Origin: Marsupella aquatica
Taxonomy: Eukaryota; Plantae; Marchantiophyta
Reading direction: 5' to 3'
DNA length: 64,000 nucleotides
Assembly: GCA_973895155.1 (NCBI GenBank)
Contig: OZ316899.1
Location: 4,219,241-4,283,240, forward strand
Both the position numbers and the translations under genes were made by a program. Positions 1,495 through 44,258 of the stretch are shown piece by piece (position 1 is the stretch's first letter; each line of letters starts with the position of its first letter). Below the pieces are notes generated by a model, which did not search any database, was not told the origin of the DNA, and saw nothing but the letters and a program-made list of their open reading frames with translations.

Positions 1495-3483
1495 TGTTAA
1501 ATGCCCAGTTTGACTTGCGATTAACGGACATCTAACTGCCTTCTTCACAGTATCTCCCGCTTAAACGATCAACCGACCTTCTAGCGGGGTACTCCCCTCT
1601 TCCTCTATATAGTCCCCGTAAGTGAATCCTACCAAGTGCTCTATAATGTCTAACTCTTCCTTCCACTTCTTGGGCACAACTGCTTCAGTCAACACCAGAC
1701 CCTCCCTGTAGATGATCTCGATAAACCCACACCAGTAGCGGTAAGTAATTAAACAGATGGGAATACTCTCCTGGCGTAACGCTCGGGTAATCAGGTGGGA
1801 ACCGATGGAACAGATCCACAATTCCAGTGGTCTTAACTTAATCAAGGAGCAAGGCTTGTCCTCCTTACTGTCTACATTCATGGTTGTTATAGTAGCAGTG
1901 ACCGGGGTAGGTCCTGCTGTCCCTCAATCGGCCTTCCTGGCAATCGATCTGTCTTTGGCTAAATCAAGCAATTTAAATAGAGGTATCCGTAGTAGGAACC
2001 CCAGTTTAACGGTTGACCCTGTATGTTGAAGGTGTATGACGACCAAGGTCACGTCCTGGATACACACAATCTCCAACCAGACCTTGCTTCCCACGAGCTG
2101 TCTGTTAAATCGCTGCCTTAACGTGCTAAACCGTAAGGTCCTCACTCGTAGTGAGACGATTTCCATTCATCCCAGCGATTTACGATTAATCGACTTAACA
2201 CATGTTCCTAACGAGTACTTCGCGCGAACTCCCATAACCGCACTCCTCGACTCTCAGTATTAATCACGAATGCCTCTCCTTCTTCGAATGACTTTCAAAG
2301 TTACTGTTTATTCTGACTTAATTCACAACATTCTTCCAATGTTGAATCTGGACTCTTACTCACCGCTCAAGCACAAGGTAATGAAGTTCCTCTGCACTCT
2401 ATTGCATTCATACACATCTCTTTATAATCGAAAACTACTCAAAACGAGTAGGGACACTAATACAAAACGCTGGTAATCTTGAGGTGAGTCCGGCTCTACC
2501 TCTCAACCAAGCTCCTAGCACAAAGTGACAGAGCGCCTAGCGTTCCACAGCCTCTAAATACCTATGCCTCGTGTCCGTCTTTGCTGAGGTTTCTAACTAC
2601 TTTCCGGGGCGCGCCGACTTCAGTTGGACGGTTTGCCCTTCAGCCGCGGTCTCCTGCGCTAATCTGCCAAGAAACTCTAACTGTCTCCTGCCAAGAATGA
2701 TGAGCGAGCCAAGAACCGTGTTTACATGTCAAGAAGATTCCCGTGGTTACTGAACTGTGCAACGACGCCTTTGATTCTCTTCTTTGATGGCGCCTGAACT
2801 GGAAGCTTCCGGACTTTCGATCGCCAATCCTGCTAAGTGTGAAACGACATTTAGGTTATCGTCCCCTTCCTTAGCGGTAGTCGCTTTGTTGGCGACAATT
2901 ACTTGACCGGCGGTGATTAATCGCCATGCAATCCGTTGATCGCAGTTGTTATCCCGCCTTAGTACCAGATTCCACTTCTTCCGCATGACATTTCTGCAGA
3001 ATTCCTCAATGGCCCCGCTGGTCGTGAATCGCTGATGAAACTCTTCGCCCTTCATTCCAAACAATTGTTGCCCGGCCTCATCCCAGACACGATAGCTCCC
3101 TTCTTTCACCCGAATGGTGAACATAAACATAAGCACTCCTTCGCCTAGCGGTTTACACCTATGCCCTACTCGATTTCGGCTAATAGGGGTTCCCATGTCG
3201 GTCCCCTCTTGTCTTTTCTGTTGAGCCCTTGTGCCTAAGGCACAGACCTTGCCATCTGCTAGAAAGCCATCGCAACCTTCATAACAGAACTCTACTCCTA
3301 TCCGGCCACTAATCACGATGATCGTCGCCTCTCCTAATTCTAGCCTTTCCGCCATTCTAACAGGATGCAATGAACTGCTACCGGTCCTTGCGTGCTGCTC
3401 CCTAAATACCCTGGATTAACTTCTGGCTGACGCTTCTAAGACTAAAGGACTATAATTTAACCGGTGTAATGTTACCGTTTACA
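1495..3483 (-). repeat. Element B 3' LTR
   Basis: TGTTAA...TTTACA. Matches 17345-19333 at offset 15850, roughly 2-3% divergent by eye, mostly transitions. Confidence 0.97.
2747..3355 (-). CDS. RPA1 C-terminal (DBD-C)-like OB-fold protein, ~202 aa, inside the B 3' LTR
   Basis: First ATG at 3355 (MAERLEL). Pattern ATI..I......CYEGC......KVC...HRC......FMFTIRV......WDEAGQQLFGMKGEEF resembles the Zn-finger-containing OB fold of RPA70 DBD-C. Confidence 0.65.
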   Translation of the reverse strand: MAERLELGEATIIVISGRIGVEFCYEGCDGFLADGKVCALGTRAQQKRQEGTDMGTPISRNRVGHRCKPLGEGVLMFMFTIRVKEGSYRVWDEAGQQLFGMKGEEFHQRFTTSGAIEEFCRNVMRKKWNLVLRRDNNCDQRIAWRLITAGQVIVANKATTAKEGDDNLNVVSHLAGLAIESPEASSSGAIKEENQRRRCTVQ

Positions 3484-3500
3484 TCCTCCTTTACTTACCT
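3484..3500 (-). promoter_or_regulatory. Polypurine tract of element B
   Basis: AGGTAAGTAAAGGAGGA abuts the TG start of the 3' LTR on the minus strand. Confidence 0.85.
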
Positions 3501-3545
3501 ACGGACTCGCCCTCGATGTCCGTATTGCTCGGTAATCGTTGCTGC

Positions 3546-6500
3546 TTATTCGACTCCATTGCCCCTGCTAACACCTGGTTTCTTAATTGGGGTGATCTGT
3601 GTTCGGACTTGTGCCTTGAGCTTCCTCACCTCTGACCTGAGATCTAGAATAGATCTTTCCTTGTCTTCCAATTCTTGCGACAATTGGTCATGCTCTGACC
3701 TGAGCTGTTCCAGCTCCCCATTCGCTTTGCTCCCCTCTGGTCGTTGTTTCAAGGCGTCTGCAAGTTGTACTTCTAATTGACCGATCCTACTTTCGGCTGC
3801 TTCCTTATACCTTGCGGTCTCCAGCGTGGATTCTCCTGAAGCCGTTGTTGGATCCCCTTGTAAGGTGGCTTGGCTGAGTTGTGTATCCAGATCCTTGATT
3901 TTGCTTCAGTTCTTCTACACGTTGGCGTTTGACTTCCCACTTGCTGGCTATGCTCTGTTGCTGTGCTGCTTCTTCTTTGAGTTGGAGTCTCAACTTCTCG
4001 ATCTCCTTTAGCTTCTCTATACCCTGCTTCGTCTGTAGGTTGGCTTTTCGGTTCTCCATCTTTACCGTGGTAATCGCTGCTCGGATGGCCACGATTACTT
4101 CCTTATAGTTGCTTGTTAACCCCCCCGCTTGTATCTTCTCGATGCCCAGGAATTCGGCTAAGTCTTTGATGGCTGTTTCTTCGTGCCTCCATCCTCGTTC
4201 ACTAGTCGCTAATCGATCGTTTTCTTGTAACAACTCTGCATTTCGGGTGAGTAACTTCTTAATCGTCCCCTCGGCCTCTACTGCCCATTTTATCGATTCT
4301 TCTTGCTGGGCTAACTTCCTTGCCATGTCTTCTTCCTGCTTGGCTAACTTCCTTGCCATGTCTTCTTCCTGGTTGGCTAACTTCCTTGCCATGTCTTCTT
4401 CCTGCTTGTCCCACTGCAACTGTAATAGAGCACTTTGTATCCCCTGATAAATTGACATCTGACTGACGATCTGTCCCACCATGACGTTGAAAATGCTATT
4501 CTTTTGTACCATTTCGATCTCAGCTCGTAGCCCTTCCAATCCTCCCTCATGCAGTACTAGTTTTCCCTCTTTTTCTCTAATCGCTGATAAAGCGTAATTA
4601 AGATCCTCGTCTTCAATCACTGCCGTCGAGTACTTCCTGGTTTCAGCTGGTCCCTCCTGGTCCTTCGTTGGTGGTTGCTCCGTGACCATACTCCTCGTTA
4701 CTCGCATTGGCGATCGATCGTCTCCTAGTTGATTATCTTCTTTGTATGCATTGTCGTCCTGCCTTGCGCTCTTGCGCTTCTCGGTCGGTTCGACCTTCTC
4801 TGTCTTGTCTGCGGTCTTGGGTCGTGCTACTGCTGGACTTCCTCTCTTGCAATGTCCGAGGGTCGGTCTTGATGATTTTCCCCCTGCATCTCCCTTGGTT
4901 CTCGGTGGGCCTCCACGTGGAGATGAATTTGCTGTAGTCCTCGGCTTGTAGCTCAGTTGGAACACTCCACGTCGAATTCACGAAATCCTCTAATCCTTGC
5001 GAACGTAAGAACTTCCGGTGAGTTGGGTCTCTCATGTTCTTCAAGATATGGGGCTCCATCCTTTCGAATTTAAGCACATGGAAAACTTCCCTCGGACGGG
5101 CTCTACTCGATCCAACTGACTTCTTCTTCTGGACTGCTGTTTCGTTGCCAAGCTCTTCTTCCTCGCTGGCTGAGCTACTCTCTTCTTTTTCCTCCTCGGG
5201 TTCGATTATCTTGGCCTTCTTCTTCTCTGAATCGATCGCTCTCCTCTTGGGCCGTTCCTCGTTAATAAATTTCACCTTGTTCGGGCGAGTTCTCTTCGTG
5301 TCGGGAGGCGTCGATTTCTCAAGTATGGCTGCTGTGACTGCCGCAATCTCCACCTCCGGGTCAGTTTCGGTCAGCCAATCTACAAGCGTAAATTTTTGTT
5401 TTACCTGCGGTCCTTCATTCCCCACTGACAGCACCTCCGACCTCTCGACCTGAGCTTCCGGTACCTTGATCGGTACTTCCTTTTCTACTTTGACATCCTG
5501 CCGCTCGGACCCCGGCTCCATTTTGAGTTCTTGCTCTCCCATTTCCGTCTCCGCTCCTGCTATACTATCGGTGATCGGTGGCTGCTTCCCGACGACTCCT
5601 TGATCATTAATAGTCGTGTCCGCGAGGACTTCTTGCACCTCTGTTTCTATTTCTTCCGCATGTTCTTCTTCTGTGTATGACGTCGTTCCTTCCATGGCTG
5701 GCGTTTCTAGCAGTTCTGCCATCGTCGTGCGTTTCCTGGGGTACTCGTCTGCAAGTTTGCCTGCTCTCTTGAGGGTTACTACCTTCATTCCTACAGGCAA
5801 TGTGTAATATTTGCTCCCCACTCTTGTCCACTCGAACCTCAGTGCTCGCTGATAGCCGCTCCACTCTGCAGTCGCTCGTAGCTTCCGCGCCAACCGCAAA
5901 TAGGGTTTCCATCTTAGCAACTCCCTCGCTGATAGGGGTATTTGATTCTCGGACTCCCCCGTCTCGTAAGCTTTTAGAAGCACATGTAATTTTCCCGTGG
6001 AATAGTTCTCTATGCACGGTATTGAGTTAGGTCCTATCAGTATCCGATCCACCATCCAGGTGGACGATTTTCCGTGAGTACACCCTACGATCACTACCCT
6101 ATACGGAAATCGTTCCCGCTCTTCTTCCTGTCCTTTTGTTAGTTTGTATTTCCAATCATGAACTTGAAATATTTCCGATAGATCTTCTGCTGCTAGTACA
6201 ATTGATTTGATTTGGCTTGTCTTCGCTGAACTAAACGGTCCGCTTGATGGGACTACTTCATTCACGTAATCTGCTAGCGTACATCCCTTAATCGCTGCTG
6301 TCCGTACTTGTTCGTTTGTTCGGTCCCTTCGCTGCTGTCGATAGTGGTTAGAGGTGGTACTTGGCCTGGCCGGGCGAGCCAAGGACGGTCCTGTGTGCGC
6401 TGGTAGTTCTTCCCCTTCTGTGGTCTCCGCCGCTGCGGGGTAGGGAGCCACGCTTATACAAGCCACGACTCTGGGAGATGATTGGTACTCCCCTAACCCT

Positions 6501-6685
6501 ACTTGATTCCGGTTTCTTGTAGCAGCTAATGGTTGATAGCGGTCGCTATCCTCGGCCCGTGTTGGTACTGCATCGTGGTCATTTCTGCCGTCATCTTTGT
6601 TCAGGTAGTCGTTAACCGTGCTTTCTACCTCCCGCAAGTACACGTTGTTTCTAACGTGATATGTCTTCATTTTGTTCCCGTTCAT
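3546..6685 (-). pseudogene. Accessory region continuing from integrase: unknown domain, PMD-like module and coiled coil; broken by two frame changes (~4850, ~3895)
   Basis: ORFs 4733-6685, 3805-4965 and 3546-3752 join into one reading path. The first begins with the integrase end motif NGNKMKTYH. GLEDFV..TW..P...D..KFI.TWRP matches the X ORF. Long heptad-rich segment. Confidence 0.7.
4310..4405. repeat. 33-bp tandem repeat x3 encoding EEDMARKLA.Q
   Basis: CTTCCTTGCCATGTCTTCTTCCTG.TTGGCTAA repeated; ends approximate. Confidence 0.9.
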
Positions 6686-8204
6686 CAGCTGCTGCTCGCT
6701 GCCGTCCTGGCTGGCAATTTCGAAGGTTCCATTCCCCCATACCTTGAGTATAGTGAAAGACCCTTCCCACTTAAGTCTTAACTACCCTTTTTTTATGCGT
6801 GCCCTTTTCCGGCACCAAAGTACCAATTCTCCTTCAGTGAACGTGGTGACATCCCGTTGATCGTCTATCCGTCGTTTGCGTTGTCCTTGTACGTATTCTA
6901 ATCGTTCTTCAGCCTTCCTTCGAGTTTTGGTTACCTCCAGTAATGTCCTTAATCGTTTGCTTAAAGATTAATGTTGTACCCGACGGCGATTTGCAGATTG
7001 GGAAGTTCGTAATCTGCTGGCATACGAGCTTCTACTCCAAACATTAACTAAAAGGGAGTGTGGCCCGTGGTTACCTTATACGCCGTTCGGAATGCCCATA
7101 CTGCGGCGGGTAGCTGAACGTCCCAATCATTCTGTTGGTTGTTAATCACTTTCCGTAAAACGTTGAGTAGGATCTTATTCGTCGATTCCGCTTGTCCGTT
7201 ACACTATGGGTAGTAGGGCGTTGAGAACCGGTGACTGATATGATAGTTGTCGGTTAGCTCCTGGATGACCTTGTTTATGAAGTGCGACCCCTGATCGCTT
7301 ACTAGTTCCCCCGGTAATCCGTACCTTGTAATGATGTTTTGATATATGAACTTAGCCGTTACTTGCGCGGTGTTGTCGCGAGTTGCGACTGCCTCTACCC
7401 ATTTCGTCGTGTACTCCGTTGCTGCCAAAATATACTGATTCTGGCTATACCTGGAAGGTGGGGTAATGGGCCCGATGAAGTCCAATCCCCATTTCTGGAA
7501 GATGTACGACGCTATTATGGGCCGGAATTCCATGTTTTCTTTTATTGGGCCCGTTCGCTGACACAAATCGCAAGTCTTCACAAACTCCCGAGTGTCCTTA
7601 TGGATCGTTGCCCACCAGCGTCCTTGCTGCAGAATCTTCCTTATGGTGATTTTGGTGCCAAAATGTCCTCCGCCTAGCCCCTCATGTGCCGCGATCAAGG
7701 CTTCCTACTTCTCCTCTTCTGGGATGACCCTTCGTAGTATATCATCCGGCCCTTTGTAATAAAGCACGTGGTTGATTAAAGTATAGGGCCTCGCCTTGTA
7801 TGCATAGATTTTCCTCTCTTTACTGGATAACCCGTCGGGGTATTCTGCTGTGCGTAAATACCTTTCTAACGCCGGTTCGTCATCTAAGGTGACCAGTTTT
7901 ACATGGTATGTCTCTTGATCGCCTTGGAATAACTCCATATCAGGCAATTGATCATCCCCTTCCTTACAGGTCTCTCCTGACTCTAATCTACTAAGATAAT
8001 CGGGTATAACATGGGTCTTCCCTGGTTTATAAATGATGGTGTAATCGAATTCTGCTAGCAGTAAAATCCACCTTGCTATTCTGCCTGACAATTGCGGTTT
8101 GTTTACCAAATTGACTAAGGCATTGTGGTCTACATAAAACACAAAGCGATTACCGAGTAAATAATGCCTGAATTTCTTTACGGCAAATATCATGGCTAAC
8201 GCTT
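6686..8204 (-). pseudogene. pol: Element B RNase H (3' half) and integrase, disrupted
   Basis: FAVKKFRHYLLG, DYLSR, H....GGHFG...C..CQ, KWGLDFIGP, SDQGSHF. In-frame TAGs at 7705 and 7204 and later frameshifts. Confidence 0.93.
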
Positions 8205-8577
8205 TGTGATGCCTAGACAGGAATCACTCGGCCGGTTAAGTGGGTAAAGCAGGAAGGCACCCTAGGAACACCTTAGTATAGTGACAAAACAAGGAAAATA
8301 TAAACAATTAGGGGCAACCATGGAACCCGGGCCGAGGCCGGAGGTAAGGCTAAGGGTGAAAACCCGATTAGGGTTAGGGCGCGTTAAGCGTCGGCGGCTA
8401 GGAAGGATCAACGGGAAGAAGGACCGGCAAAGGAGAGGGGTAAGGAGCGCTTGCAGGAAATAGTGGCTCATTTGCGAGCACGAACTAGGCAGACGACTAC
8501 GGGAGGCCAACTACTGTCAGCTGCTTAGGCAAGCACTCGGGGAGAGAGTAGATACCGACGATCAACCTAAGGAGGGT

Positions 8578-11500
8578 ATGAGCAACGTCAATCAAGCGGC
8601 ACATTTCTGGGGATGCCTGTTCGAACGGGCAACTGAGTACATCAAGACTTACGAGGACGAGGAATCAGAAAGGGCAGCTAGAGAACGGCAGGAGCTCGCT
8701 CGATTGTGGGAGCTGCAGAAGACGGCTTTCTTAGGAGGCGAACTCATCAAGGACGAGTTCCTGTGGACGCCTACTTCCAATCAACTCGACGATCTTCTGT
8801 TTTGCAAAGACAGCGTCGTCGGCATCCGAGAGGCCATCAAGAACTGCAACGACATACACTGGGAATTAAAGGGTAGCACGGAAAGGTGGACCCAGGCAAC
8901 GGTGCTAGGAGAAACCTCCACGGCAGCAGAGATGAAGAGGAAGGGAGCCGTCAACGATGAAGCCACCCCGGCAAAAAGAACGAGATCGGCGGCACCAAAG
9001 AAGCCAGCCGAGCAGCAGAGCAGGAGGCAGGGAGAAGCCGAAGAAGAGGAGGTCGATCCCATCAAGGCCATTCCAACCAGGGATGACACCTGGAAGGGCT
9101 GGGCGGCAACCCTACCGGTGGAGGTGCAACTACATTTTGCACGGGAGGAGGATGCATGCTTTACGGCCATGCAGACCAAGAAGTACCAAGGCTTCATGGC
9201 CGGATCCGGCTTGGAGGCCTTTGTAAGATTACCATGGCTGAAGCCGGAGGTACCGGAGTCAGACCTATTAGAATTCGTGGGGTCATGGGAACCCGAGACC
9301 AATTGCACGAGGATATATGGGAAGGATTTCTATCTTACTCCCAAGGTAATTGCCGAAGTGTTTGGCCTGCCGATAGGCAATAAGACCAAAGTTGATACCA
9401 GGAAGACCTTGCCTGACAAGGAGTTCCGGTCGTTCCCCGGGCCATCAACGAAGAATGGCTTCTTCCGGAACACCTGCACCAACCCGCACATAGGAGAGAT
9501 GATCGACTTCTTGCGGGTGACCATGCATTGTAACTTGCCGAGGGCAGAGATCGGCAAGGCACAGGTCTATCTGGCAGAAAGGCCAGACCCAAGCCGGGAC
9601 TACAACGGGTACCTCCTCAACCAATTGAAGAAGATCTTAAAGGAGGAGCAGCAGGTAATCGGCATGGGGAGCGTGTCGCGGCTTGGCTATCACATGCCGC
9701 TGTTGTGCCGGTATGCCAGAGGTCAGACTTTTGCCCCGGTACTTCCCCTGCAGGTAAGGGCACCCGAGGAAGCTCCAACGCCGAGGCCGTTGGCTGAGAA
9801 GCCTCAACCACCTGTTAGTCCTACGATCGAGCAGGTGTTTAGGCCCAGGAAGGAGGACTTGCCGATGCAGCAACCAGGCATGCAGAGTCTGCTGAAACTA
9901 CTGGAGAAAGAAAAGAAATCGGCATCGGCAACAACAACGGCAACGGCAACAATGCAGGACACTACTACAGAGGTAGGCCTACACCGGCTCACAAAAACCC
10001 CTTTGCTGGAGACAAGGAGAGAATCAGGCCGAAATCCAAGCCAGGTGTTCGAATGTACGTGGGAACCTCAAGCTCCGAATCTGAGGCAGAATTGCCTGAA
10101 GCTCCTACCGACGAAGAGGAGAGGGAGAAGCCGGACGTCCAAGAGGTAGAGGAGGCAGTGGAGGACTGCAGCCATGATAATTCCGGCTATGGGTCGGACC
10201 ATCACGTTCCAGGAGTAAGGACCTGTGGCCGGTTTGTCCCCACACTTCCAAGGGTAGTGCGAGGGGACCCCAACCAGCAGAGTAGCCCTGAGTCTCCCCC
10301 ACCAGACGTTGCCCCCCCGAGCTTCGACGGCATAAAACAGACGGTGCAGGAATTTCAGGAGCGAATCAAGCAGGAAGAGGAGGCCGCCCTGGCTAAGGAA
10401 AAGGATTTACCAGGAGGAGATTGGCCGGAGGACATCAGGCGGCTAGCCGAAAAAGGAAGCAAACCTCTAGCCACGATTGAAGAGATCCGCAGGACGGCTT
10501 GGGAGCAGAGGCCACGATGGGCGATGCCGATCACTTCTACTTACTCCACCTACGCTAAGAATAGAGCCATGGAGTATGGTGAGATGTGTGGGGAACTTGC
10601 GCTCGGCATCTTTGGAGAGGAGTTGGAGGTAGGACCCTTTTTCCATAGGGAGCAGTTGGAGAAGCACCAATTAGAAGAAGCGGTGGCTTTAGAGAGAAGC
10701 AAGAAGGACGAGGTCATTCGGCGGCTTAGGAGGATGGAAGCCGAGATTGAAGATCTAAGGGCGGCCAAGAAAGCCCAAGATGAACTGCGGATTAAACGAC
10801 ATGAGCTGAACATCATGCAGGGGCAGTTGGACACCGCGCAGGCTGATAATCAGAATATCAAGGATAAACTGACTCAGACGCAGGAAGAGTTGGCCGACAC
10901 GATCAAAGAGAGGGAGAAGTGGAAGCAAGAGCTGAAGAATACAGAGGAGGCCCACATAACAGCCAACAGCCGGGCCATGGCGGAGACCCAAAGAAAGGAA
11001 TGGGCGTTGAAAGGGGAGCTCGAGAAAATCCGCGGAGCCCTTGAGCAGAAGGAGGCCGAGTTAGGGAAATCCTATCAAGGGATTATGGCGCTGCAGCAGG
11101 AGCTTGCGTCCCTGACGGCCAGCTTCAAGGCCGACCTAAGGGAGAAGGACGAGATGCTCGAACAGACTTACGCCAAGATGAATCAGATGGAGTCTGTCAT
11201 CATTGCAGAGCTCGACAAGGAGCTAAGAGTAACCCAGGAGGAGAGGGCTACCTTGAAGAAGGAATTGGAGGAAGCCCACAGGGAGCAGGAGGAGGCCAAA
11301 AACGAGCTGGAGGGAGCACGTAAGGACCTGGATGAAACCCAAGAGGAGTTGGAGGAAATCACGAGGAAGATGGAGAACCTACAGCGGCGGGCCGACAACC
11401 AAACTGAGCGGCTGAAGAAACAAGCCGCAGTATTTAAATGCTTAGCTGCAGCAGGTCCATCTCCCGTTGGGACAAACCAGTTACCAGGGGTGGTAATTGC

Positions 11501-11939
11501 CGAAGGACAGGCCGCGCCACCTGCACCAGTGCCGGAAGTAAGTGGGAAGGGGAAGGGACCAGATGCCGAGCCACCAACGAAGAAGAAGCGGAAACCTTCA
11601 AGGTCAAGGAGTAATACGACTTCACAGGCCGTGGTGATCAAGGAGGTAGACCCAGCACCGACCCCAGACAGGGTCACGGCTAAGGATCCAACTACCCTAG
11701 GGGAAGGGGAGGCCGAAGCCGAGGGAGTGGCTGAAGCCGAAGCCGTGGGAGTGGCTGAGGCCGAAGCCGTGGGTATTGCCGAGGCCGGTGTCGAGGCTGA
11801 AGCCGAAGGTGGACCCAGTCAGGCCGAGGGAGAGTTGACTCGGTCAAGGGCAGGTAATCTGTCAGTAGGCGGGCCAACGGCAGTGGCTGAGGGGGAAGTG
11901 TTGGGGGCGTCCATTGAGGATCCACCACCGGTGTCGTGA
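8578..11939 (+). pseudogene. ~1120-aa PMD-like + Pro-rich + coiled-coil protein, one frameshift near 9995
   Basis: ORFs 8578-10149 and 10053-11939 overlap; in X2 the equivalent junction (TKADPFVGD...GVRMYMG) is in one frame. SWEPET..RIYG....T...IAEVFGLPIG (~9280-9378) resembles the plant mobile domain core. Confidence 0.75.
11710..11810 (+). repeat. Degenerate 24-bp tandem repeat encoding AEAE(G/A)VGV
   Basis: GCCGAAGCCG.GGGAGTGGCTGA units; absent in this form from X2. Confidence 0.8.
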
Positions 11940-12850
11940 CGGTGCAAGGGCGCCGTTCCTTTTAGGGAGGGCGGACGTGGAGGGAGGAGGCGTGAGTGGG
12001 CAGGGCGGGCGCGGATCTCCACGTTTAGGATTAGGATTAGAACCAGGAGCGGCCCTAACACTTAGCTTAGTGGGATTGCGGTTCCACTGGTAGGAGCAAC
12101 ACTTGTGCTCCTGCCTTGCTGTACATAGGTAGATTCGGGCAAGTAGATTACTGTCAGGTAGATTAGGCTTACGATGCAAAGAATGGCGGATCCACTACCA
12201 GGATAAGTACCTGGGCAGCGGGGAGCTCAGGGCCTCTTCTTTAGCAAGTTTTTAGTTTGCACCAGCCGGGCTAGGATCAAGTAGTACGAGAAGCTCTCGG
12301 TTAGTCATACAGTGACCCTTGTGTATATTCATGTTTCCTCATGCCTAAGAGCTGAATAGAGTTGGCCTCACGGCTTAGTTCGCAGAACTGGTGTATGAGA
12401 TGTACTGTTTGTATGGCAAGTGCATGGTATGACTCAGTCAGAATGAGTCATTTTGCTATTTGTGTGTCGCATTAACTTGTGTGAAGAGTGCCCACATCAA
12501 CAGAAGGAAGGAAAGTAAGCAGGGGAGTGAGAGTTGGATGTGTCGAGCTGAGAGAGGTCTTAGCGGCTTAACCAAGCCTATTGGGGATCATTCCGGCGGC
12601 GGAATCCAAACATACCTAACAAGACGGAGGGGAAGACAGGGGAAGACCTATATTAGGCCGGCTACGTATCTCATGACCCGATGAAGGATCTGTCCAGTAT
12701 ATGTGTGTAAAATGTTAATAGTAGTAGTAGAAGGTTAGCAGCGTCCCATGCCGCTAAGCCGCGGAAACGGCCTCGCCAAGCACGAAACCTGCGGGAATCG
12801 GCTTGAGCTGGGGGGTTTCTTGGGTTTAGGGAGCCATGGGACGCACCACA

Positions 12851-15595
12851 CGCTTCTCTCTCGGTCGTAGTGTAATTCCTTTCATGCACGTTTAACAGTC
12901 TACTGGCATAGTATACTGGTAAATCGATACCTTGTTCTCCCTTCTGTGCCAACACCGCTCCCACCGCCACCAGAGAGGCATCTGTATGTAGATGGAACTC
13001 CTTCTTCCAATCTGGTTCCTTGAGTATGGGTGCATGGCACAACCGGTCCTTGATTTCTTCAAACGCTTTCTGACAGTCGTCGTCCCAAGTGAACGTTTGA
13101 TGGTTACTCGTTAATCGTGCCAACGGGGCACTGATTTGGGAGTAACTCTTGATGTAACGATGATAGAAACCTCCACTTCCCAGGAACCTTCTGACTTGGG
13201 TTGCACTATTGGGGACTGGCATCTCTTTAATGATTTTTATCTTATCTGGGTCTACTAACAAGCCCTGTTTACAAACTATGTGTCCTAATATCTTGCCCGA
13301 TGGTACAAAGAAGGTGCACTTATCAGGGTTCAGGCTGACTCCCCCTTCCCTACATCTTAAGAGACATAATCTGAGGTGGCCTATGTGTTGCTCTTCCTCT
13401 TCGTATATGGTGAAGTCATCCAGGAAGATTTGCATAAACTGATTCAAATACTCATGAAATAACATCATCATTAATCGCTGAAATGTACTAGGCCCATTGC
13501 ATAATCCAAAGGGTAATACGAGACACTGGAAAGCGCCCCATTCCATAATGAAAGTGGTTAGCTCCCTCGCTTCTGTTGCTAACCGGACCTGACTGTACCC
13601 GCTGTACCCATCTAGAAATGAATAAGCTGATTTTCCTGCTACCACATCCAGAACTGCTTCTAGAAATGGTACTGGAAAAGGGTCTTTTATGGTAGCTGCG
13701 TTTAATTTTCTGAAATCAATGCAGACTCTCAACTTCCCATTTTTCTTAGGTACTACGACTATCGGAGATAGCCACGTATAACGCTTAACGGGTTCAATGA
13801 ATTTGGCATCAAGGAGCCTTTGGATTTCTTCTTTTACCTTTTCCGCATAGTTGGGGTTCATCCTATATCGTTGCGTCTGCACCGGTACTGACCCTGGTAC
13901 GAGTCGGATTCGATGTACGCCAATTGACTCTGGTACTCCCTTCAACTCCGTGTAATCCCAGGCAAAAACATCTTGGAATTCGGCGAGTAGTGTAACAAGT
14001 TCCTCTTTGAGCTCGGGGGAAAGGTGCTTTCCTATCTTTACTTCTCGCGGTCGTTCGGTGTCACTCAAATCGACCTTCTGAATGTGCTCTTCCTCGGTGG
14101 CACTCCATCCCACCACTTTCTCTGCTAGATCCTGCAAGGTGGTCTGTGCTTCTTCCTCCTTTAACGAGCACTCCTGAATGCCTTGCGGGTCTATGTGTTT
14201 AAACAGATCGTTTCGTAGATCATGATCCATCTTTTCTCTGGTCATTCCTTGCATCTCGTCGAGCTTGACTATTTCCATATCTGAAATTGGTACTAAGTCT
14301 GGACGGCATTTTAAATAGGTCTCTTCTTCATCCTCATTCAACCCCTCTGCCCAGTTCAAAGTACAGACTCTGGCCATAGGTGGTACACCGTCTTCGATGG
14401 CCTTGGTCCTGATCTTGAAGGTCTCTCCTTTGTGTTCTATTTTTATATAATCCTTTTCTTCCCCCCAGTGTTGTTTTACTTTGGCCTGTCTTAGCCAAGG
14501 TCGTCCTAACAACATGGGTTGTCCTTGGGTAGAATCTGCTTCTCTCAAAACTACCACTCCTAAATTGTACTTGATGCTTGAAATCAGCATTGGTAAGTCT
14601 GGCACGTAACCCAGTGGGTGACAGCTGCTTTGATCGGCCATTACTAGATTAAAAGGGGCCACTAAGAGCTTGACTCTACCTAGCAGTCTGTAGGTCTGCT
14701 CACTCATGAGGTTTACAGCTGACCCTCCATCCAGCAATACGTTCTTCAGTTTGATGCCCCTTACGCTGATCTGTACTACGGCTCCTTGGTCGATCAGGGG
14801 AATCTTCCCAGCTTGGTACAGTGGTACCCCTGGCAGTGTGGTAGGACTAATTTTGCCTCCCAACCGTCTCATTACTGCTTCCTTGCACTGTGGTGCTAAC
14901 TGGAACAGTTCCTCGACAGTGATGTCGACTCTGGTCTTCGCGATGAGTTGCACTAGCTTATCCACTATTCGCCGGTTCGCTTCGGCAGGGTTATTCGGTG
15001 GTTCTTCGTCTCGTGGGAGTTGTCCCGTTTCTTGATCGAATCCCCCCATCGTCACTCCCTCCTCTAGAATTTCAGTATCCGTCTCTGCGTAAGGTTCTGA
15101 ACGCATTAATCGTTCAGGCCGTGGCAGCGTCTCGTTCTGCTGTTTGTGGTGAATTTCATCCGCTATTTCTCGTGTGGTTGCGTCCATTTGGCTCCAATCA
15201 AATCCTCCCTCAGTCTCCGTGGGATTGGTTGGGGTTGAGTCCTCTGGCTGCCCCTGAGATCTTGTCACCACGTATGTCGACACCTGCACAGTGTTCACAG
15301 GTGCTGGGGCTTTTCCCGCTATTTCTTCCTTTTCTTTCATATGCTTCATCCATAATTCACAATCAGGGCCCCTGATGTGGCCGGTTAGTCGACAGTAATA
15401 GCAAATCGGTGGGTATTTAGCCCCACCATCCTTATAAGGCCTTTGGTTTGCGTTACGATCAGGATTGTAATATCCCTGGCTACTCTCCATCCTATCCCCA
15501 TCTTGTTTGCTTGTTCCTACCTGATTTACACCTAGGCTAGGTTTCTTTTTAAAAGGATTTTGGTTGCATTCCTGAGTAGTGTGTCCAGGCCTCAT
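12851..15595 (-). CDS. pol: Element B Gag zinc knuckles, protease, RT and RNase H 5' half (open up to the X1 insertion)
   Basis: CYYCRLTGHIRGPDC, LLDGGSAVNLM, LDGYSGYSQV, FGLCNGP, FLDDF, LHTDAS. Confidence 0.95.
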
Positions 15596-15667
15596 ATGTA
15601 TTTCACAGAATTTACGAGTACTAACCTCGCCTCGCTCTCGGTTTTCCTTGACTTCTACCTTAGAAGT

Positions 15668-16420
15668 TTATGTTTTCCGATTAACCCTCTCTTTGTCCTT
15701 ACTGCTCTCGTTCTTTTCCTGGTTAAGCATCTGAGTAATGCCCTCTAGCCGTATTAATCTTTTCTCGTATTCATCAGCATTAGAAGTGGGATTTTGTTCC
15801 ACCACTGTGACTAGACTCCCCTTCACAGCCTTCCTCATCCAGCTAATTTGTTGCCCATCGGACGGTTTATTTGTTAATCCTCTCATTGTTACCTTTAACC
15901 GTCCAATATAGTTTTGTACTGGTTCTCCTTTCTTCTGAGTCATGTTTTGCAGAATGCTATACAAATCGGACTCTTCCTTAGCCCTTCTGTAATGATCTAA
16001 GAATTCTTTTGAAAAATCAGGCCAAGTTTTGAAATGGTCAGCTGGGTATTGAGTGTACCATACAAAAGTCTCCTTGTCCAGCGAGCTGGGAAACAGCTCT
16101 AATCGGGATGTGTCGTTCTGTTCGTGGTTAGCTCTGAGCATTTCTTTGAAACGTGCTAAGTGGGTATCGGCATCTTCATCAGGTGCTCCCTTGAACATGG
16201 GTATTTTAACCCTTCTAGTAGGAGCCGATCTTGAACTACTGCCAGCTCCTTGGTGGATTTTAAGTCGTTCCATGGCTTCTTCCAAGTTTTCTTCGACCTT
16301 ATCTTGAGTCCTTGAATTCTCGATTCGTTCTTCGGCCTCAAGTCTGGGTCTGCTTTCTTGGAAAGGTTCGAACTCCCCTGCCATTTCCCCTTCGTTGGGA
16401 TTGACGGGCATCTTGCCCAT
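15668..16420 (-). CDS. gag: Element B gag (capsid region), separated from the downstream frame by one in-frame TAA
   Basis: IPMFKGAPDEDADTHLARF...WY...TW..FSKEFL...Y. The frame after the TAA reads directly into RKFCEIHMRPGHTTQEC. Confidence 0.9.
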   Translation of the reverse strand: MGKMPVNPNEGEMAGEFEPFQESRPRLEAEERIENSRTQDKVEENLEEAMERLKIHQGAGSSSRSAPTRRVKIPMFKGAPDEDADTHLARFKEMLRANHEQNDTSRLELFPSSLDKETFVWYTQYPADHFKTWPDFSKEFLDHYRRAKEESDLYSILQNMTQKKGEPVQNYIGRLKVTMRGLTNKPSDGQQISWMRKAVKGSLVTVVEQNPTSNADEYEKRLIRLEGITQMLNQEKNESSKDKERVNRKT

Positions 16421-16643
16421 TTATCTTTTGGGGTAGCAAAGCCCTTTCTCTGCCTACAAGCAATATACTCGACGATCAGGTCTTTTCTTTACAAAGGTGG
16501 CGTCAAGTTCTTATTACTCGTTACTTTTCACAAAAACGGAGACCTTCTACTGTCTCCTTTACTTGACTAATGTTATGACCTCTATTAATCAGTTTCTCTC
16601 TCTCCTTTACTTAATTGTGGCTATGCCCTCTGCGAAATGACTC

Positions 16644-16958
16644 CTATTCACTTAAACTAGGAGTGCAGGCTTCTGGAGCCATGAGTTCCTCGTTAAAGCA
16701 CATCATTAATAACTGTTTTAACATAGAAAACTCAAAACTGTCATGTTGACTCCACATCATACATCCTGGGCAAGCCCCTGTGGTTTCCTCTAGTTTAGAA
16801 CTTAATTTCCTAGCGATTCTGCCTATCTGGAATGCTATCGCAATAGGGTACTCATTTCGATTCCAATGACACCACTCTAAGATCTTTCTAAGGTCCTCCT
16901 TCCTCTTGGGTAGGCGGTACTGCGTGTAGCCTTGGGGTAACCGATCACTTGGTGGCAT
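16644..16958 (-). CDS. Element B upstream ORF2, 104 aa, unknown (CPGC..H motif)
   Basis: ATG at 16958, overlapping the ORF1 end by 14 nt; lies between PBS and gag. Confidence 0.4.
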   Translation of the reverse strand: MPPSDRLPQGYTQYRLPKRKEDLRKILEWCHWNRNEYPIAIAFQIGRIARKLSSKLEETTGACPGCMMWSQHDSFEFSMLKQLLMMCFNEELMAPEACTPSLSE

Positions 16959-17226
16959 GGTCGCTGTTGTAAACACTGCTCCGAACAGAGGATTGAAAAT
17001 GAATCGCCCGCCTCCTCACGTTCCAGGTTCCGCCATGCGCTTCTCGAAGTACCAACTCGGTGTGTGTGGGCGTGGTGTAAGCGATTATCATAACATCGCC
17101 TTCTCGTGCATTGCTCCTCCCGTTGGCCAGTATCGAGTGCTCTTTCTCGTTCAGTGTCGTTATGATTGCTGCTTCGGCATCTTTCTCGAAATAGAACAAC
17201 ATCCAGAATTCCTTTGGTGAGTTCAT
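16945..17226 (-). CDS. Element B upstream ORF1, 93 aa, unknown
   Basis: ATG start ~100 nt after the PBS; globular-looking composition. Confidence 0.4.
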   Translation of the reverse strand: MNSPKEFWMLFYFEKDAEAAIITTLNEKEHSILANGRSNAREGDVMIIAYTTPTHTELVLREAHGGTWNVRRRAIHFQSSVRSSVYNSDHATK

Positions 17227-17322
17227 GTCACCCGTTTGCCCTTCTTGATTTGCTCTTCTCTCTCCTGGTTCGGACTGCTGGTCGTAGCAGTTGCTCCTCT
17301 CTCGGAACCCTCAACGAGGCGT

Positions 17323-17340
17323 TCCCCAGTATGGTCGCCA
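17323..17340 (-). promoter_or_regulatory. Primer-binding site of element B
   Basis: TGGCGACCATACTGGGGA, 4 nt after the 5' LTR. Resembles the tRNA-Arg-type PBS of Tat/Ogre elements; tRNA identity not verified. Confidence 0.85.
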
Positions 17341-17344
17341 AAAA

Positions 17345-19333
17345 TGTTAAACGCCCAGTTTGACTTGCGATTAACGGACGTCTAACTGCCTTCTTTGCAG
17401 TATCTCTCGCTTAAACGATCAACCGACCGTCTAGCGGGGTACTCCCCTCTTCCTCTATATAGTCCCCGTAAGTGAATCCTACCAAGTGCTCTATAATGTC
17501 TAACTCTTCCTTCCACTTCTTGGGCACAACTGCTTCAGTCAACACCAGACCCTCCCTGTAGATGATCTCGATAAACCCACACCAGTAGCGGTAAGTAATT
17601 AAACAGATGGGAATACTCTCCTGGCGTAACGCTTGGGTAATCAGGTGGGAACCGATGGAACAGATCCACAATTCCAGTGGTCTTAACTTAATCAAGGAGC
17701 AAGGCTTGTCCCCCTTACTATCTACATTCATGGTTGTTATAGTAGCAGTGACCGGGTTAGGTCCTGCTGTCCCTCAATCGGCCTTCCTGGCAATCGATCT
17801 GTCTTTGGCTAAATCAAGCAATTTAAATAGAGGTATCCGTAGTAGGAACCCCAGTTTAATGGTTGACCCTGTATGTTGAAGGTGTACGACGACCAAGGTC
17901 ACGTCCTGGATACACACAATCTCCAACCAGACCTTGCTTCCCACGAGCTGTCTGTTAAATCGCTGCCTTAACATGCTAAACCGTAAGGTCCTCACTTGTA
18001 GTGAGACGATTTCCATTCATCCCAGTGATTTACGATTAATTGACTTAACACATGTTCCTAATGAGTACTTCGCGCAAACTCCCATAACCACACTCCTCGA
18101 CTCTCAGTATTAATCACGAATGCCTCTCCTTCTTCGAATGACTTTCAAAGTTACTGCTTCTTCTGACTTAATTCACAACATTCTTCCAACGTTGACTCTG
18201 GACTCTTACTCACCGCTCAAGCACAAGGTAACGAAGTTCCTCTGCACTCTATTGCATTCATACACATCTTTTTATAATCGAAAACTACTCAAAACGAGTA
18301 GGGACACTAATACAAAATGCTGGTAATCTTGAGGTGAGTCCGGCTCTACCTCTCAACCAAGCTCCTAGCAAAAAGTGACAGAGCGCCTAGCGCTCCACAG
18401 CCTCTAAATACCTATGCCTCGTGTCCGTCTTGGCTGAGGTTTCTAACTACTTTCCGGGGCGCGCCGACTTCAGTTGGACGGTTTGCCCTTCAGCTGCAGT
18501 CTCCTACGCTAATCTGCCAAGAAACTCTAACTGTCTCCTGCCAAGAACGATGAGCGAGCCAAGAACTGTGTTTACATGTCAAGAAGATTCCCGTGGTTAC
18601 TGAACTGTGCAACGACGCCCTTGATTCTCTTCTTTGATGGCGCCTGAATTGGAAGCTTCCGGACTTTTGATCGCCAATTCTGCTAAGTGTGAAACGACAT
18701 TTAGGTTATCGTCCCCTTCCTTAGTGGTAGTCGCTTTGTTGGCGACGATTACTTGACCGGCGATGATTAATCGGCATGCAATCCGTTGATCGCAGTTGTT
18801 ATCCCGCCTTAGTACCAGATTCCACTTCTTCCGCATGACATTTCTGCAGAATTCCTCAATGGCCCCGCTGGTCGTGAATCGCTGATGAAACTCTTCGCCC
18901 TTCATTCCAAACAATTGTTGCCCGGCCTCATCCCAGACACGACAGCTCCCTTCTTTCACCCAAATGGTGAACATAATCATAAGCACTCCTTCGCGTAGCG
19001 GTTTACACCTATGCCCTACTCGATTTCGGCTAATAGGGGTTCCCATGTCGGTCCCCTCTTGTCTTTTTTGTCGAGCCCTTGTGCCTAAGGCACAGACTTT
19101 GCCATCTGCTAGAAAGCCATCGCAACCTTCATAACAGAACTCTACTCCTATCCGGCCACTAATCGCGATGATTGTTGCCTCTCCTAATTCTAGCCTTTCC
19201 GCCATTCTAAAAGGATGCAATGAACTGCTACCGGTCCTTGCGTGCTTCTCCCTAAATACCCTGGATTAACTTCTGGCTGACGCTTCTAAGACTAAAGGAC
19301 TATAATTTAACTGGTGTAATGTTACCGTTTACA
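17345..19333 (-). repeat. Element B 5' LTR
   Basis: Direct repeat of 1495-3483; TG..CA ends; adjacent to the PBS. Confidence 0.97.
18597..19205 (-). CDS. RPA1 DBD-C-like OB-fold protein, copy in the B 5' LTR
   Basis: Same length and frame as 2747-3355; about a dozen amino-acid differences, no stop. Confidence 0.65.
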   Translation of the reverse strand: MAERLELGEATIIAISGRIGVEFCYEGCDGFLADGKVCALGTRARQKRQEGTDMGTPISRNRVGHRCKPLREGVLMIMFTIWVKEGSCRVWDEAGQQLFGMKGEEFHQRFTTSGAIEEFCRNVMRKKWNLVLRRDNNCDQRIACRLIIAGQVIVANKATTTKEGDDNLNVVSHLAELAIKSPEASNSGAIKEENQGRRCTVQ

Positions 19334-20159
19334 TTTCTCCCAAATGACTAGGTATGTAGGTTAGAAGCAGTTGGCTGTCTTGAATTCTTCTCAAGATTGT
19401 TTGTTGGTACACATTGATGTTGATGACATTTTGCAAGATCTTGAATTGATCACATTAGTCTTGTATCATTGTGAACTATAATTTGGATAAATTCTGTTGC
19501 TATGAATGCTTCATTTTGAAAATGTGTTCAACTCATTTCGAATCATGCCTTTGAATGTGTTGAATGCACCATATGTTTCATTATACTCTGCAATTGTCAT
19601 GAATGCATAATACTTTGAAAACTATGACTAGAATAAAATAGTCATAGACAAGAGTGCATCTCACAATTATACCACAAATACTAACGCAAGACCCATCAGT
19701 CCTCAACAATTGCCCTATAAGTCATGTTCATTACTCGGCCCTGTAGTTTCCTTAAACGATCTTAGTTATAAACACTACTAACACCAGATCCAAAGGATGT
19801 GTTGACAACTTGGAGATGTTAAAACTGATACTTCTGAAAGACTACACATAGTCACAACTTAGTCGCAAACACCAGTAATCTCAGTTCGTCGGAGGTCATG
19901 GTAGTAAGAGAGGCATGACTGATGGTAGTCACAGTGTAGTCACATTAGATGTGTGGTTTTATGCTCTTTTTTAGTCTAAACCTAGTCATAGTTTGGGTAT
20001 CATCCATGTCACGATGTACAGTAGTATTAGTGACTTTCCACATTTTAGTCACCATTTAGATAACTCATGCGGTCTCAACCAGGGTCACGGTTGAGGAAGT
20101 CACGTTGGTGTCACAAGGGCTAAAAATAGTCACAATTTCTGGTCTCAACAAGGCTCGGA

Positions 20160-22147: not shown

Positions 22148-24455
22148 CCCTTAGTAGCTGACAAGGTCCTTGTAGGGGATGTTCCTGCCGGAGAGAAGGT
22201 GTTGTTGCAAGAGAAGATACCTCAAGTTAAGACAATGGATCTTGAAAAACTAATTTTTGTGAATGTCACTTCTAACGGTAATCTGGGTGTTGCTTTGGTG
22301 GATACAGGCGCGACCGCTTGCTTCATAAGTGGGCAGGCGGTGGCACGTCTTGGGGTGGACGTGCAAGAGTTGCTACAACCATTAGTGTGCAAGTTTGCCA
22401 ACAACACAAAGGGGATAGTGTCGAGAGTGGTACATAGACTTCGAGTAGAGGTCATAGGCGAACAACCAAATTTTGTTAGTCAGGAGATGTTCTACGTTCT
22501 AGACGGTCTAGCCGTACACTTCATTTTGTTGGTAGGTTATCTCAGAAAGCACAATGTTACCTTGAAACCAGGGGGTGAAGTGCTCCATTTTCCCAATAAG
22601 GGCGGTGAGCCCATCGTTGTACACAAAGTTACCAAAAATAAAGAAAGATTTCTTAAAGTAAGTAAAGTGTCATGGTGGAAAGACTTCAAGGGTGGACATG
22701 AATGTTTCTTCTTTCATCTCCACCCAATTAAGGAGGATGCTTCGCAGCCAAAGGTTAAGTCAGCTAAGGTCGGGCCCGACTGCGGTCAAATTCATGAAAT
22801 TTTAGAGGAATTCAATGACGTGCTCTTGCAGAAGCTACCTAAAGGTTTACTCCCGCGGAGAGAAGTGGATCACCAAGTTGAGTTGGAGCCAGGTTTGGCT
22901 CCTCAGGCTAAAGCTTGTTATCGTTTGAATCTGAACGAACAAATGATGTTGAAGAACGCCTTGGAAGAGTTGATCGACCAAGGGTTCATTCGTCCTAGTG
23001 AGAGTCCTTATGGGGCGCCCGCGCTGTTTGTGTCCAAAAAGGATGGTACTTTGAGGTTGTGTGCATATTAGCGGGCCCTCATCAAGCAGACGGTAAAGAA
23101 CAAGTACCCGCTACCTCATATGGATGACCTCTTTGATTGCCTCTCCTGGGCTAGGAAGTTTTTAGAGGTGAACTTGCGGTCTGGGTATTACTAGATCCGC
23201 ATGGCTAAGGGAGACGAATATAAGACCGCAATGCGCACAAGGTTTGGATCCTATGAGTTTTTGGTTATGCTGTTCGGGTTGTGTAATGCAACCGCAACGT
23301 TCATGAAGATGATGAATACCATCTTTCATGACTTGCTGGACCAAGGAGTGGTCGTCTTTATTGACGACATCCTAATCTACTCAAAAATGTTGGAGGAACA
23401 TGAGCAGTTGCTCAGAGAAGTGTTCTCTCACCTTCGTAAGGCTCGTCTCTTTGCTAAATCTAGCAAGTGCAAGTTTGCAATGAACGAGATTCAGTTCCTT
23501 GGCCATACCTTTACCCCGGAGGGGATTACGCCTAGTCAGGACAAGCTTAAGGAGATCAAAGAATGGGAGCGCCCGTCCAATGTAAGCCAGGTTAGAGCCT
23601 TCTTAGGATTTACGGGGTTCTATCGGAGATACCCGAAAGACTATGCGAGGATCGCGAGGCCCCTAAGCGCGCTAACGTTGAAAAACAAAGTGTTTGTGTG
23701 GACACAAGATTGCAAGTTAGCATTCCTAGAACTTAAGCGGCTAATGATAACGCCGCCGGTTTTAAAGTTACCTGAGATGGGGAAGTCGTTCAAGATTTGG
23801 ACAGACGCAAGTGATTATGCCATTGGCGTCTGTCTTCACCAAGATGGGTGTCCTGTGGCCTTCGAGTCATGCAAGTTGGAAAATCATTGGATTGTGATCT
23901 ATGCGTTGAAGAAGTGGGAGATTTACCTTAAGAACGGTCCTACAGTGATAATCCACACAAAAAGCTTGTCGGGCGGGTAATTCAGTTCTAAGCCAAGGCT
24001 GAACCCCAAGGAAATGCGTTGGCAGATGTTCTTGGCGGATTTTGATTTTGAAGTCCGTCACCTTTCTGGGAAGACAAACACGGCAGCTGACGCCTTATCG
24101 CGTAGGGACCATCATCGTGTCAATGGGATCACAATACTCAAATCCAAGTGGCCAAAGGTTCTGGCCGCGGCGTATGGGGATGACAGGTTAGCTAAGGAAT
24201 GACAAAGCAATGGGGGTAGCCAAGGCAAGGTAAGGCACATGTCATTGGGGTTGGATACGACGCATAATGTTAAGTTATGACGATACAAGCAGAGGCGTGT
24301 GTACATACCAGAGTCTCTAAGGTTAGAGGTTCTGCAAAAGTACCACGACTCACCCTGTGGAGGGCATGGAGGACAAGATGCTACGTATTGCAGCATGTCG
24401 CGAGATGTGTATTGGCCGGAGATGAAGCAATCGGTCCTTCGCCACGTGCAAAGTT
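22148..24455 (+). pseudogene. pol: Family A chromovirus copy A2: protease, RT, RNase H and start of integrase
   Basis: [60 protein letters not shown]; several stops. Confidence 0.92.
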
Positions 24456-25396
24456 TAGGGACCAAAGTTGGTCCGAGGGTGGCAGGTCTCCGCAAGCATA
24501 TATGAGGGGAGTGGTGTCACCCTAGGGGCCAAGCACGAGCCGAAGTCGTGAGCCGTGGCGATCGCGACACTAGAGGAAACCGCCACACAAAAATGACGAT
24601 ATCTTCCCAACAGGAAGTCCGTTGGAGGACTTCTTGGGTGCGTTGGAAAGCTCTCGACAAGGGCTACGTCCTCCTGAGCTCAGGTGGGTCTGGGGACACC
24701 ATGGGTTCTTGGGGTTTATGGGTGTTAGCCCGCCCGCTTGCCAAATCCTATCAAACAGCAGCCAAGTCGCGTTCAGTCTCCCAAGGGAGCTTGGCATTGG
24801 GGAGGCAAGGCCAAGTAGGTGTGGAGATTGAGTTCCAAGAGTGTTTGGCCCCTAGACCATCAGTGAGGAAAATTGGGAGTTGGTTGCTAGAGTTGGGGCC
24901 ATTCTGGTCCCGGCGTGTTGGGACAAGCTTTAGGACAAGCTACGCTATTTGGGCCATGAGCATGTCCTGGGGTCAAGGCGGTCATTTGGTGATGGATAGG
25001 TACGAGAGGGAACCCGGACCGCGCTCAAGGAAGGTGCTATTCTAGACAAACAGTGGGCGTGGGTTTTGGTTCCGGCTTATGGCATTGGGAGGACCTATCG
25101 GTGACCTATTTACCAATGTCTGTTGAGCTTGAGTTAGGATGCTAGACTTGGCAAGTTCTAGATCTTGAAGGGTTACTTATTGAGGTGCTTGGTTGCTTGT
25201 GCAGACAGTGAGGACCGTTGAGTAGCGGTTGCATTGGAGAGCAAGTGCGGCTTCGTATGGGAGGGGCCGCTGACGGTGCAAGGGGCACTAGGGTGTTTTC
25301 TCAAGGTATTCCGTGGAAGCGTTCGGGCAATAGGGGCACTTAGGCGTGAGTGTTGGGATTGGTGAGGGCACTGGGCGGCTAGGTCCACCACTTGAA
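24456..25396 (+). repeat. Family A LTR (3' portion) joined directly to the integrase Zn-finger region
   Basis: Collinear with 1-668 and the reverse complement of ~62430-63365. Confidence 0.85.
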
Positions 25397-25414
25397 CCCT
25401 GACTAGGCATCACA
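25397..25414 (-). repeat. 18-bp remnant of an element X terminus
   Basis: CCCTGACTAGGCATCACA versus TCCTGGCTAGGCATCACA at 59613-59630. Confidence 0.6.
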
Positions 25415-25639
25415 CGTACTATAATTTCTCTAAGACAATGAAAGGGCCGAGTTGCTTCTATTCCAAAAATCTCTCCAACAACAAAAAGATATGACAAGAG
25501 GGGCGAAAGGTGCAAAAAATAAAGGCAAGAAATCCTATCGTCCAAATTTATCCTTGATTAATTGCACTGTAAACAGGACCAACACTGGTAGATTTGAAAC
25601 AAGATTGTTTGTAACCACAACAAAAGAAATCATTGAAGA

Positions 25640-27257: not shown

Positions 27258-27421
27258 TGTTGTAACCATTTACTCTAGACCATGGTTAACCCCTAACCCT
27301 ATCCTGAAGGGGTAACATGGGTTAACACCAACCCCAACATGTAACCCTATGGTGACTATATAAGTCACACCCATAATGGAACACAATAGCGAGTTGCAAG
27401 TCTCTCCATTGTCACACAACA
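27258..27421 (+). repeat. Copia 5' LTR
   Basis: TGTTGTAACC...CACACAACA; contains CTATATAAG; followed by CGTTATCAGCGC (Bianca-type PBS candidate). Confidence 0.97.
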
Positions 27422-36936: not shown

Positions 36937-36944
36937 TAGATTTT

Positions 36945-37866: not shown

Positions 37867-37916
37867 GCTGGTAAAGGAGGAGGCAGGCAGTATCAAGAGG
37901 GGTAGAGAAATGAGGA

Positions 37917-44235: not shown

Positions 44236-44258
44236 AGGATAATTAGCAGGATAAAAGC

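Follow-up and report, generated by a model that had tools for sequence, protein, structure and literature searches.

The window analysed here, 64,000 nucleotides of the liverwort Marsupella aquatica (assembly GCA_973895155.1, contig OZ316899.1, positions 4,219,241 to 4,283,240 of the forward strand), contains at positions 8205–12850 (+) a 4,646-bp unit, element X, that is likely to be a solo long terminal repeat (LTR), probably of a Ty3/gypsy retrotransposon, whose U3 region has absorbed an accessory gene. X has TG..CA ends, with TGTGATGC as its first and GCACCACA as its last bases, and lies between two copies of the 5-bp target-site duplication (TSD) CGCTT (8200–8204 and 12851–12855), as a first-pass annotation of this DNA had reported. 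The imperfect terminal inverted repeats described in that annotation are also present, as 8 of the 10 bases of the att-like left end (8205–8214, +) pair with the right end (12841–12850, +). A giant LTR carrying a whole accessory gene was one of two explanations put forward at that stage, and it is favoured here because two copies in the window have 5-bp TSDs of their own, because a polypurine tract (PPT)-like sequence stands before the 5′ TG in at least three contigs of one sequencing run, and because the gene is homologous to an extra open reading frame (ORF) in the 3′ internal region of the element that X interrupts.

X was said to be free of internal direct repeats, and this description holds. 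A blastn search against the window returns X itself and a second copy only, local alignments of the X termini with the rest of X score 25, 34, and 29 against shuffle maxima of 32, 42, and 39, and a coding tandem of 24 nt at ~11710 is the sole repeat inside X. Short internal LTRs, which had been named as a sign against the solo-LTR reading, are thus absent, with no direct repeat above chance. Neither gag nor pol is found by Pfam in either frame, in line with the earlier description, and inspection by eye likewise reveals no primer-binding site (PBS) inside X. No Rfam family matches X, and no tRNA gene was found within the 64-kb window.

A PPT inside X had been named as a second sign of an ordinary element, and here the outcome is divided: a PPT-like tract (11960–11977, +), followed by TG, stands directly after the stop codon of the gene, but the short LTRs that would accompany it were not found. 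The tract is kept in both copies, resembles in form the gypsy PPT junction at 44137, and may be the relic of an older LTR boundary. Together with the TG (11960–11979), it could mark an ~870-bp 3′ LTR, as expected if X were an ordinary deletion derivative resembling a terminal-repeat retrotransposon in miniature (TRIM) or a large retrotransposon derivative (LARD); the inverted repeats at its ends could be those of a terminal inverted repeat (TIR) DNA transposon. That X is any of these, or two unrelated fragments, appears highly improbable. The 870-bp tail has no 5′ counterpart, and the two LTRs in direct repeat of a TRIM or LARD are missing; no transposase was found; and two unrelated fragments, another possibility raised in the annotation, are rejected by the unbroken contig depth from 8205 to 12850 and by a second copy that has the same ends, collinear content, and its own TSD.

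Most of X is occupied by a single gene of ~1,120 codons, which extends over 3,362 nt (72% of X) from an ATG at 8578 to a stop codon at 11939. It is read in two frames that overlap, confirming the earlier account of one ORF with a single frameshift. Frame 1 (8578–10149, +) encodes a helical N-terminal part and a conserved core domain (9055–9750, +), the latter common to the extra ORF of the interrupted element and to proteins of the liverwort Calypogeia. Frame 2 (9843–11939, +), to which the reading switches near 9990, encodes an acidic linker, a predicted coiled coil rich in E, K, R, and Q (~10680–11430; a weak match to the Pfam ATG16 coiled coil falls below the cut-off), a basic KKKRK stretch, and a low-complexity tail. 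The second copy reads through this region in one frame. The contigs of all four public sequencing runs considered below have an indel relative to X near 9993, so that the frameshift is likely private to X.

The X gene is shaped by purifying selection. The ratio of nonsynonymous to synonymous substitution rates (dN/dS) between X and the second copy is 0.18 over 732 codons (bootstrap 0.14–0.23), with values of 0.18 for the N-terminal part, 0.11 for the core, and 0.22 for frame 2 and its coiled coil, whereas control values are 0.86 and 1.64 off frame and 0.82–0.90 in the non-coding tail. This conserved tail (11940–12850, +) shows ~18% mismatch to the second copy and no codon bias, and at ~12695, with 156 nt to go to the end of X, it contains a TATA-like motif that is identical in both copies. 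Upstream of the gene, a possible in-frame extension from an ATG at 8320 (8320–8577, +) shows no sign of protein-level selection and no codon-position bias (0.29/0.32/0.34). The extension is closed in X by a stop codon at 8461–8463, which is shared by the second copy and reads as a sense codon in most run contigs; the family frame may therefore comprise ~1,207 codons from ATG 8320.

The second copy of X (50135–59630, −) lies in the pol of another gypsy element and is full-length but decayed, with the same termini as X and the TSD GTTAG. It aligns with X in four blocks of 69–78% identity whose content is collinear, and it is interrupted by a 4.6-kb CACTA-like element (52619–57256) with CACTAGTAG..CTACTAGTG ends and the 3-bp TSD AGG. 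This insert is AT-rich, has internal tandem duplications of 260–360 bp, and contains no long ORF.

X itself sits in a young host Ty3/gypsy element (1495–19334, −) whose RNase H it interrupts, Pfam RT_RNaseH positions 1–56 being found on one side of X and 51–105 on the other. The 1,990-bp LTRs of the host differ at only 55 sites, which indicates that X arrived recently. The interval between the host integrase and 3′ LTR contains a broken extra ORF (3805–6685, −) that is homologous to the X core by BLASTP (E 2e-8) and by a profile of homologs from outside the window (E 5e-13); the profile result is informative for the host ORF only, being circular for X, with which the homologs were collected. 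Each host LTR also contains an ORF of 202 codons (2747–3355 and 18597–19205, both −; 93% identical to each other), which is unrelated to the X gene and has no match in Pfam, the PDB, or the ESM Atlas. A likeness of this ORF to an RPA-type OB fold finds no support in the same three resources. As the second LTR-borne ORF in the window, it was counted in favour of the solo-LTR reading of X.

Public sequencing data were used to view the X family beyond the window. Fifteen runs were listed, none recorded as RNA, and six contained at least half of the sampled words; contigs of four runs were placed on positions 8000–13100, with a separate placement on the right end of X. From end to end, X is a high-copy repeat family. 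Contig depths summed for runs X1 and X2 reach 1.7e5–1.3e6 over X versus 1.2e3–2.4e3 in the outermost flank bins (values that are not a copy number), and the depth ends sharply at both boundaries. Contigs of run X2 also bridge the unoccupied insertion site, with a gap of 4,651 bases that corresponds to X plus one TSD copy, and some contig joints represent X inserted into other copies of X. At the right end, loose contig ends begin at 12850–12852 in all four runs and lead into many distinct 3′ flanks (39, 18, and 3 contigs in X2, agreement 0.36–0.56; 15 and 14 in X5; 3 and 2 in X4; 4 in X6). One contig of run X6 joins core-like sequence (~9610–9640) to the last ~55 bp of X at 12796–12797, possibly an internally deleted derivative.

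At the left end, at least three X2 contigs carry a purine-rich tract with a G-run that ends 4 nt before the 5′ TG (agreement 0.86, median loose length 14). The tract has the form of a PPT, as expected at a 3′ LTR, and provides the single direct hint of such a context for X. It also bears on the second explanation offered in the first-pass annotation, in which X is an LTR-less passenger mobilised by a retroviral-type integrase. Such a passenger would be a single transcription unit, its ends resembling att sites, which a Ty3/gypsy integrase would copy and insert in trans, each copy integrating independently. Both window copies are single and have their own TSDs, the 3′ flanks are diverse and show no PBS consensus, and the small divergence of the host LTRs means that a full element would need to have recombined soon after insertion, all of which would suit a passenger. 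However, for reverse transcription of the LTR type a repeated R region is required if both ends are to be rebuilt, and X has no direct repeat; in addition, the PPT-like tract abuts the 5′ end of X in the three or more contigs above. We consequently regard the passenger as quite improbable.

In the solo-LTR reading, gag-pol of the parent element would have been flanked by two copies of X, the 3′ one directly preceded by a PPT. The gene would lie in U3, the TATA-like motif at ~12695 would mark the element promoter close to the 3′ end, and reverse transcription would copy the gene to both ends. The PPT-like tract and TG that follow the stop codon, kept in both copies, suggest a PPT shift by which an extra ORF in the usual 3′ position came to be part of the LTR: plus-strand priming would have moved to a new PPT upstream of the ORF, and the old tract at 11960–11977 would have been left behind the stop. 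Recombination between the two 4.6-kb repeats would then have removed gag-pol and left one repeat together with the original TSD.

A variant of the same architecture places the gene in a very long U5. In that variant, which is a part of the solo-LTR reading and which we consider unlikely, the promoter would lie near 8299, the gene would be the first cistron, and solo LTRs would be self-contained promoter-gene units. A TATAAA, a putative promoter motif whose presence the first-pass annotation had noted, does stand ahead of the ORF (8299–8304, +), and the ATGs at 8320 and 8578 are both kept in the second copy. The TATAAA is nevertheless not conserved there, in contrast to the identical TATA-like motif near the 3′ end, and the homologous ORF of the host occupies a 3′ internal position that borders U3.

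Several observations weigh against a solo LTR with a gene that entered U3. In the window and the run contigs, no gag-pol region flanked by two copies of X came to light; each of the window copies is single, and the giant LTR of the annotation is to that extent unproven. Among the 3′ flanks of the four runs no common PBS was found, which is a weak negative since contigs collapse identical junctions. The PPT-like tract at the 5′ end of X appears in one of the four runs among the matches listed, and it could instead reflect insertion beside the PPT of another element. The placement of the gene in U3 is held as no more than probable, and its origin by a PPT shift as a suggestion. Finally, both window copies of the gene are broken, X by its frameshift and the second copy by stop codons and the insert. 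The earlier proposal that solo-LTR formation scatters intact expression cassettes is not upheld by these two copies, neither of which is intact and between which the TATAAA is not conserved.

Homologs of the X protein were sought in sequence collections. An HMMER search of 1.84 billion representative sequences gave 23 matches, one of which (P0019, a bacterial repeat protein) was spurious and was removed; 4 of the 10 that were looked up come from Calypogeia fissa, and the remainder have no informative name. These matches are in keeping with a liverwort source. Two alignments were used: A1, with 18 of the 22 HMMER matches (without P0005, P0007, P0009, and P0023) and two cluster members, and A2, with 21 of the 22 (without P0015) and four further homologs. 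Word-index searches found two homologs among 7,993 candidates, both from Calypogeia, and none among 878 candidates or among 3,201 proteins of 1,379–3,935 aa. In the JGI metagenomes, the X core gave 309 pattern matches and P0012 gave 103, with none confirmed in either case.

By language-model features in the ESM Atlas, the core lies near the Transposase_32 (0.90) and ATHILA (0.89) clusters, which is taken as a lead only. A structural lead comes from the AlphaFold2 model of the core (predicted local distance difference test score, pLDDT, 65). When it was compared with 48,161 solved chains, VANC21 (9LNK) ranked first, with Z 4.8, a root-mean-square deviation of 5.3, and 189 of 242 residues aligned, and the next chain had Z 3.0. 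A longer model of 386 residues (pLDDT 61.5) gave only generic helical-bundle matches to residues 1–112 (best Z 6.2), and VANC21 was not listed, the list being filled by the N-terminal helices. Foldseek searches of the PDB with both models found nothing at E<=0.001 and did not recover VANC21, the corresponding search of BFVD found nothing at E<=0.001 (best E 0.062, unnamed), and a sequence search of solved structures gave no match.

Taken as a model, these results make it likely that the X protein is an accessory factor of the Athila/Transposase_32/PMD/VANC kind that forms oligomers and acts on chromatin in the nucleus; its membership in the Athila extra-ORF or VANC families is a weak lead that is not established. 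If one role is to be singled out, the likeliest is that the protein counters silencing by the host. This role is held tentatively and at less than even probability, and it is favoured because of the weak VANC21 fold match and because VANC is reported to be akin to MAIN, a PMD protein. VANC is described as structurally related to the PMD proteins MAIN and MAIL1 (PMC13547354, PMC5418596). A more specific scenario joins the two lines of argument: a liverwort gypsy lineage would have moved a ~1,120-codon gene into U3 by a PPT shift, and the gene would encode a VANC-like, sequence-specific anti-silencing protein that acts in trans, family-wide, from each solo LTR. As a whole, this scenario is on the doubtful side.

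Four points count against the protein part of this argument. The Z score of 4.8 for VANC21 lies under the level of ~8 at which the tool considers a match meaningful, and the model behind it has a pLDDT of only 65. The Atlas matches share 150–151 of 256 features, where members of the same family usually share at least 170. The Pfam families ATHILA (PF03078), Transposase_32 (PF20167), and PMD (PF10536) were found neither in the X frames (E<=0.1) nor in the core (E<=10) nor in 28 aligned sequences. Lastly, no repeated short motif (k 5–8) is enriched above shuffles in the 1.3 kb of non-coding sequence of X or in the second copy, and the targets of VANC are described as dense arrays of short motifs (PMC5735166).

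It is close to an even call, falling a little short of one, that the LTR architecture is right and that the protein does not counter silencing and serves instead in particle assembly, nuclear import, integration targeting, or cell-to-cell movement. Roles of this sort have been proposed for Athila and Retand extra ORFs (PMC7264820), and the long predicted coiled coil, the basic stretch, the lack of a target-motif array in X, and the weakness of the VANC21 match are all compatible with them. On the other side, no other structure comes near VANC21 in the ranking for the core model. VANC is moreover reported to have a structural relative in the PMD protein MAIN, and coiled-coil oligomerisation is predicted for VANC as well as for the Athila domain (PMC13547354).

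VANC21 of the Arabidopsis VANDAL21 element, the best structural match of the core (Z 4.8 over 189 residues), resembles the X protein in combining a conserved domain with variable, repeat-rich regions and a coiled coil. VANC differs in belonging to a eudicot Mutator-like DNA transposon and in binding arrayed motifs (PMC5735166), whereas the X protein is 8% identical to it and no motif array was found in X. Moreover, Pfam finds no transposase in X, and its LTR-type ends and 5-bp TSD are not those of a VANDAL- or Mutator-like element.

A further comparison is with the sense extra ORFs of plant non-chromovirus Ty3/gypsy elements of the OTA superclade (Athila ORF-1, PF03078; Transposase_32, PF20167; Ogre PMD, PF10536; Retand Transposase_28). 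Like the X gene, these are large accessory ORFs that encode a conserved helical core together with a coiled coil, in a plant genome rich in gypsy elements; the Atlas look-alikes of the X core are Transposase_32 and ATHILA; and the X homolog in the host has pol on one side and the 3′ LTR on the other. Athila, Ogre, and Retand commonly carry extra ORFs, which the sources consulted describe as lying in the internal region (PMC6317226, PMC7264820). The X ORF, by contrast, lies within the TG..CA unit, fills 72% of it, and has no Pfam match; its host homolog alone is internal. An LTR of 4.6 kb is not out of range, as non-chromovirus LTRs reach ~5 kb (PMC6317226).

Two other systems show parts of the arrangement seen in X. 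The rice elements Retrosat2, RIRE3, and RIRE8 have LTRs of more than 3.2 kb, an extra ORF0, and 429 solo LTRs versus 162 complete elements (PMC3485330). Retrosat2 is thus like X in its very long LTRs, its extra ORF, and its many solo LTRs, but the text consulted describes ORF0 as upstream of gag-pol and does not put it inside the LTR (PMC3485330), whereas the X gene is inside the unit. In mouse mammary tumour virus (MMTV), the sag gene is encoded mostly in the U3 of the LTR, and, as would hold for X, an LTR-borne protein gene is copied to both ends (PMC4667437, PMC11998498). By analogy, X would function as a solo LTR that is laid out as in MMTV, and in both cases the LTR-borne gene may be better preserved because solo LTRs retain it. 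The likeness is one of layout: MMTV, a retrovirus of vertebrates, has solo LTRs of ~1.3 kb and encodes an immune-modulating membrane protein, whereas X is a 4.6-kb unit of a plant retrotransposon with ~1,120 codons, and no sequence relationship was found. In the literature searched, sag is the clear precedent for an LTR-borne gene, and no LTR of a plant element was found to enclose a large gene; subscription papers and supplements may hold such a case.

LTRs are taken as non-coding, and solo-LTR formation is taken as the end of the coding life of a retrotransposon. A selected gene of more than 1,100 codons in a 4.6-kb LTR would break both expectations for a plant retrotransposon. If X is a solo LTR, every such leftover retains an accessory gene whose normal place is in the interior of the element, between its two end-repeats; for annotation, units like X resemble host genes or unclassified repeats. 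Within the same window, a homolog of the gene occupies the usual internal site, and the two permit a direct before-and-after comparison for the entry of the gene into the LTR. In addition, the function of Athila-type extra ORFs becomes testable, since the predicted fold points, weakly, to VANC and PMD chromatin proteins. If the VANC-like reading is also true, the principal route by which the host deletes retrotransposons would leave the counter-defence behind, with each solo LTR a stand-alone counter-silencing gene, and the extra ORFs of the Athila/Transposase_32 type would share one structural family with VANC and PMD proteins.

Other repeats in the window were observed alongside X. An inverted duplication (35508–39701 and 44256–48449; 4,194 bp, 99.8% identical) contains the 5′ part of a gypsy element; this fold-back begins just past a 3′ LTR cut to 99 bp and may be an assembly artefact or the product of a template switch. 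A Ty1/copia-type element at 27257–33027 (+), with 169-bp LTRs that are 99% identical and an unbroken ORF of 1,539 aa, looks young. Lastly, a repeat family of ~1 kb is present at 1–663, 24449–25397, 25636–26679, and 62428–63724, in direct and inverted orientation and with 80–89% likeness, and it adjoins two copies of another gypsy family.

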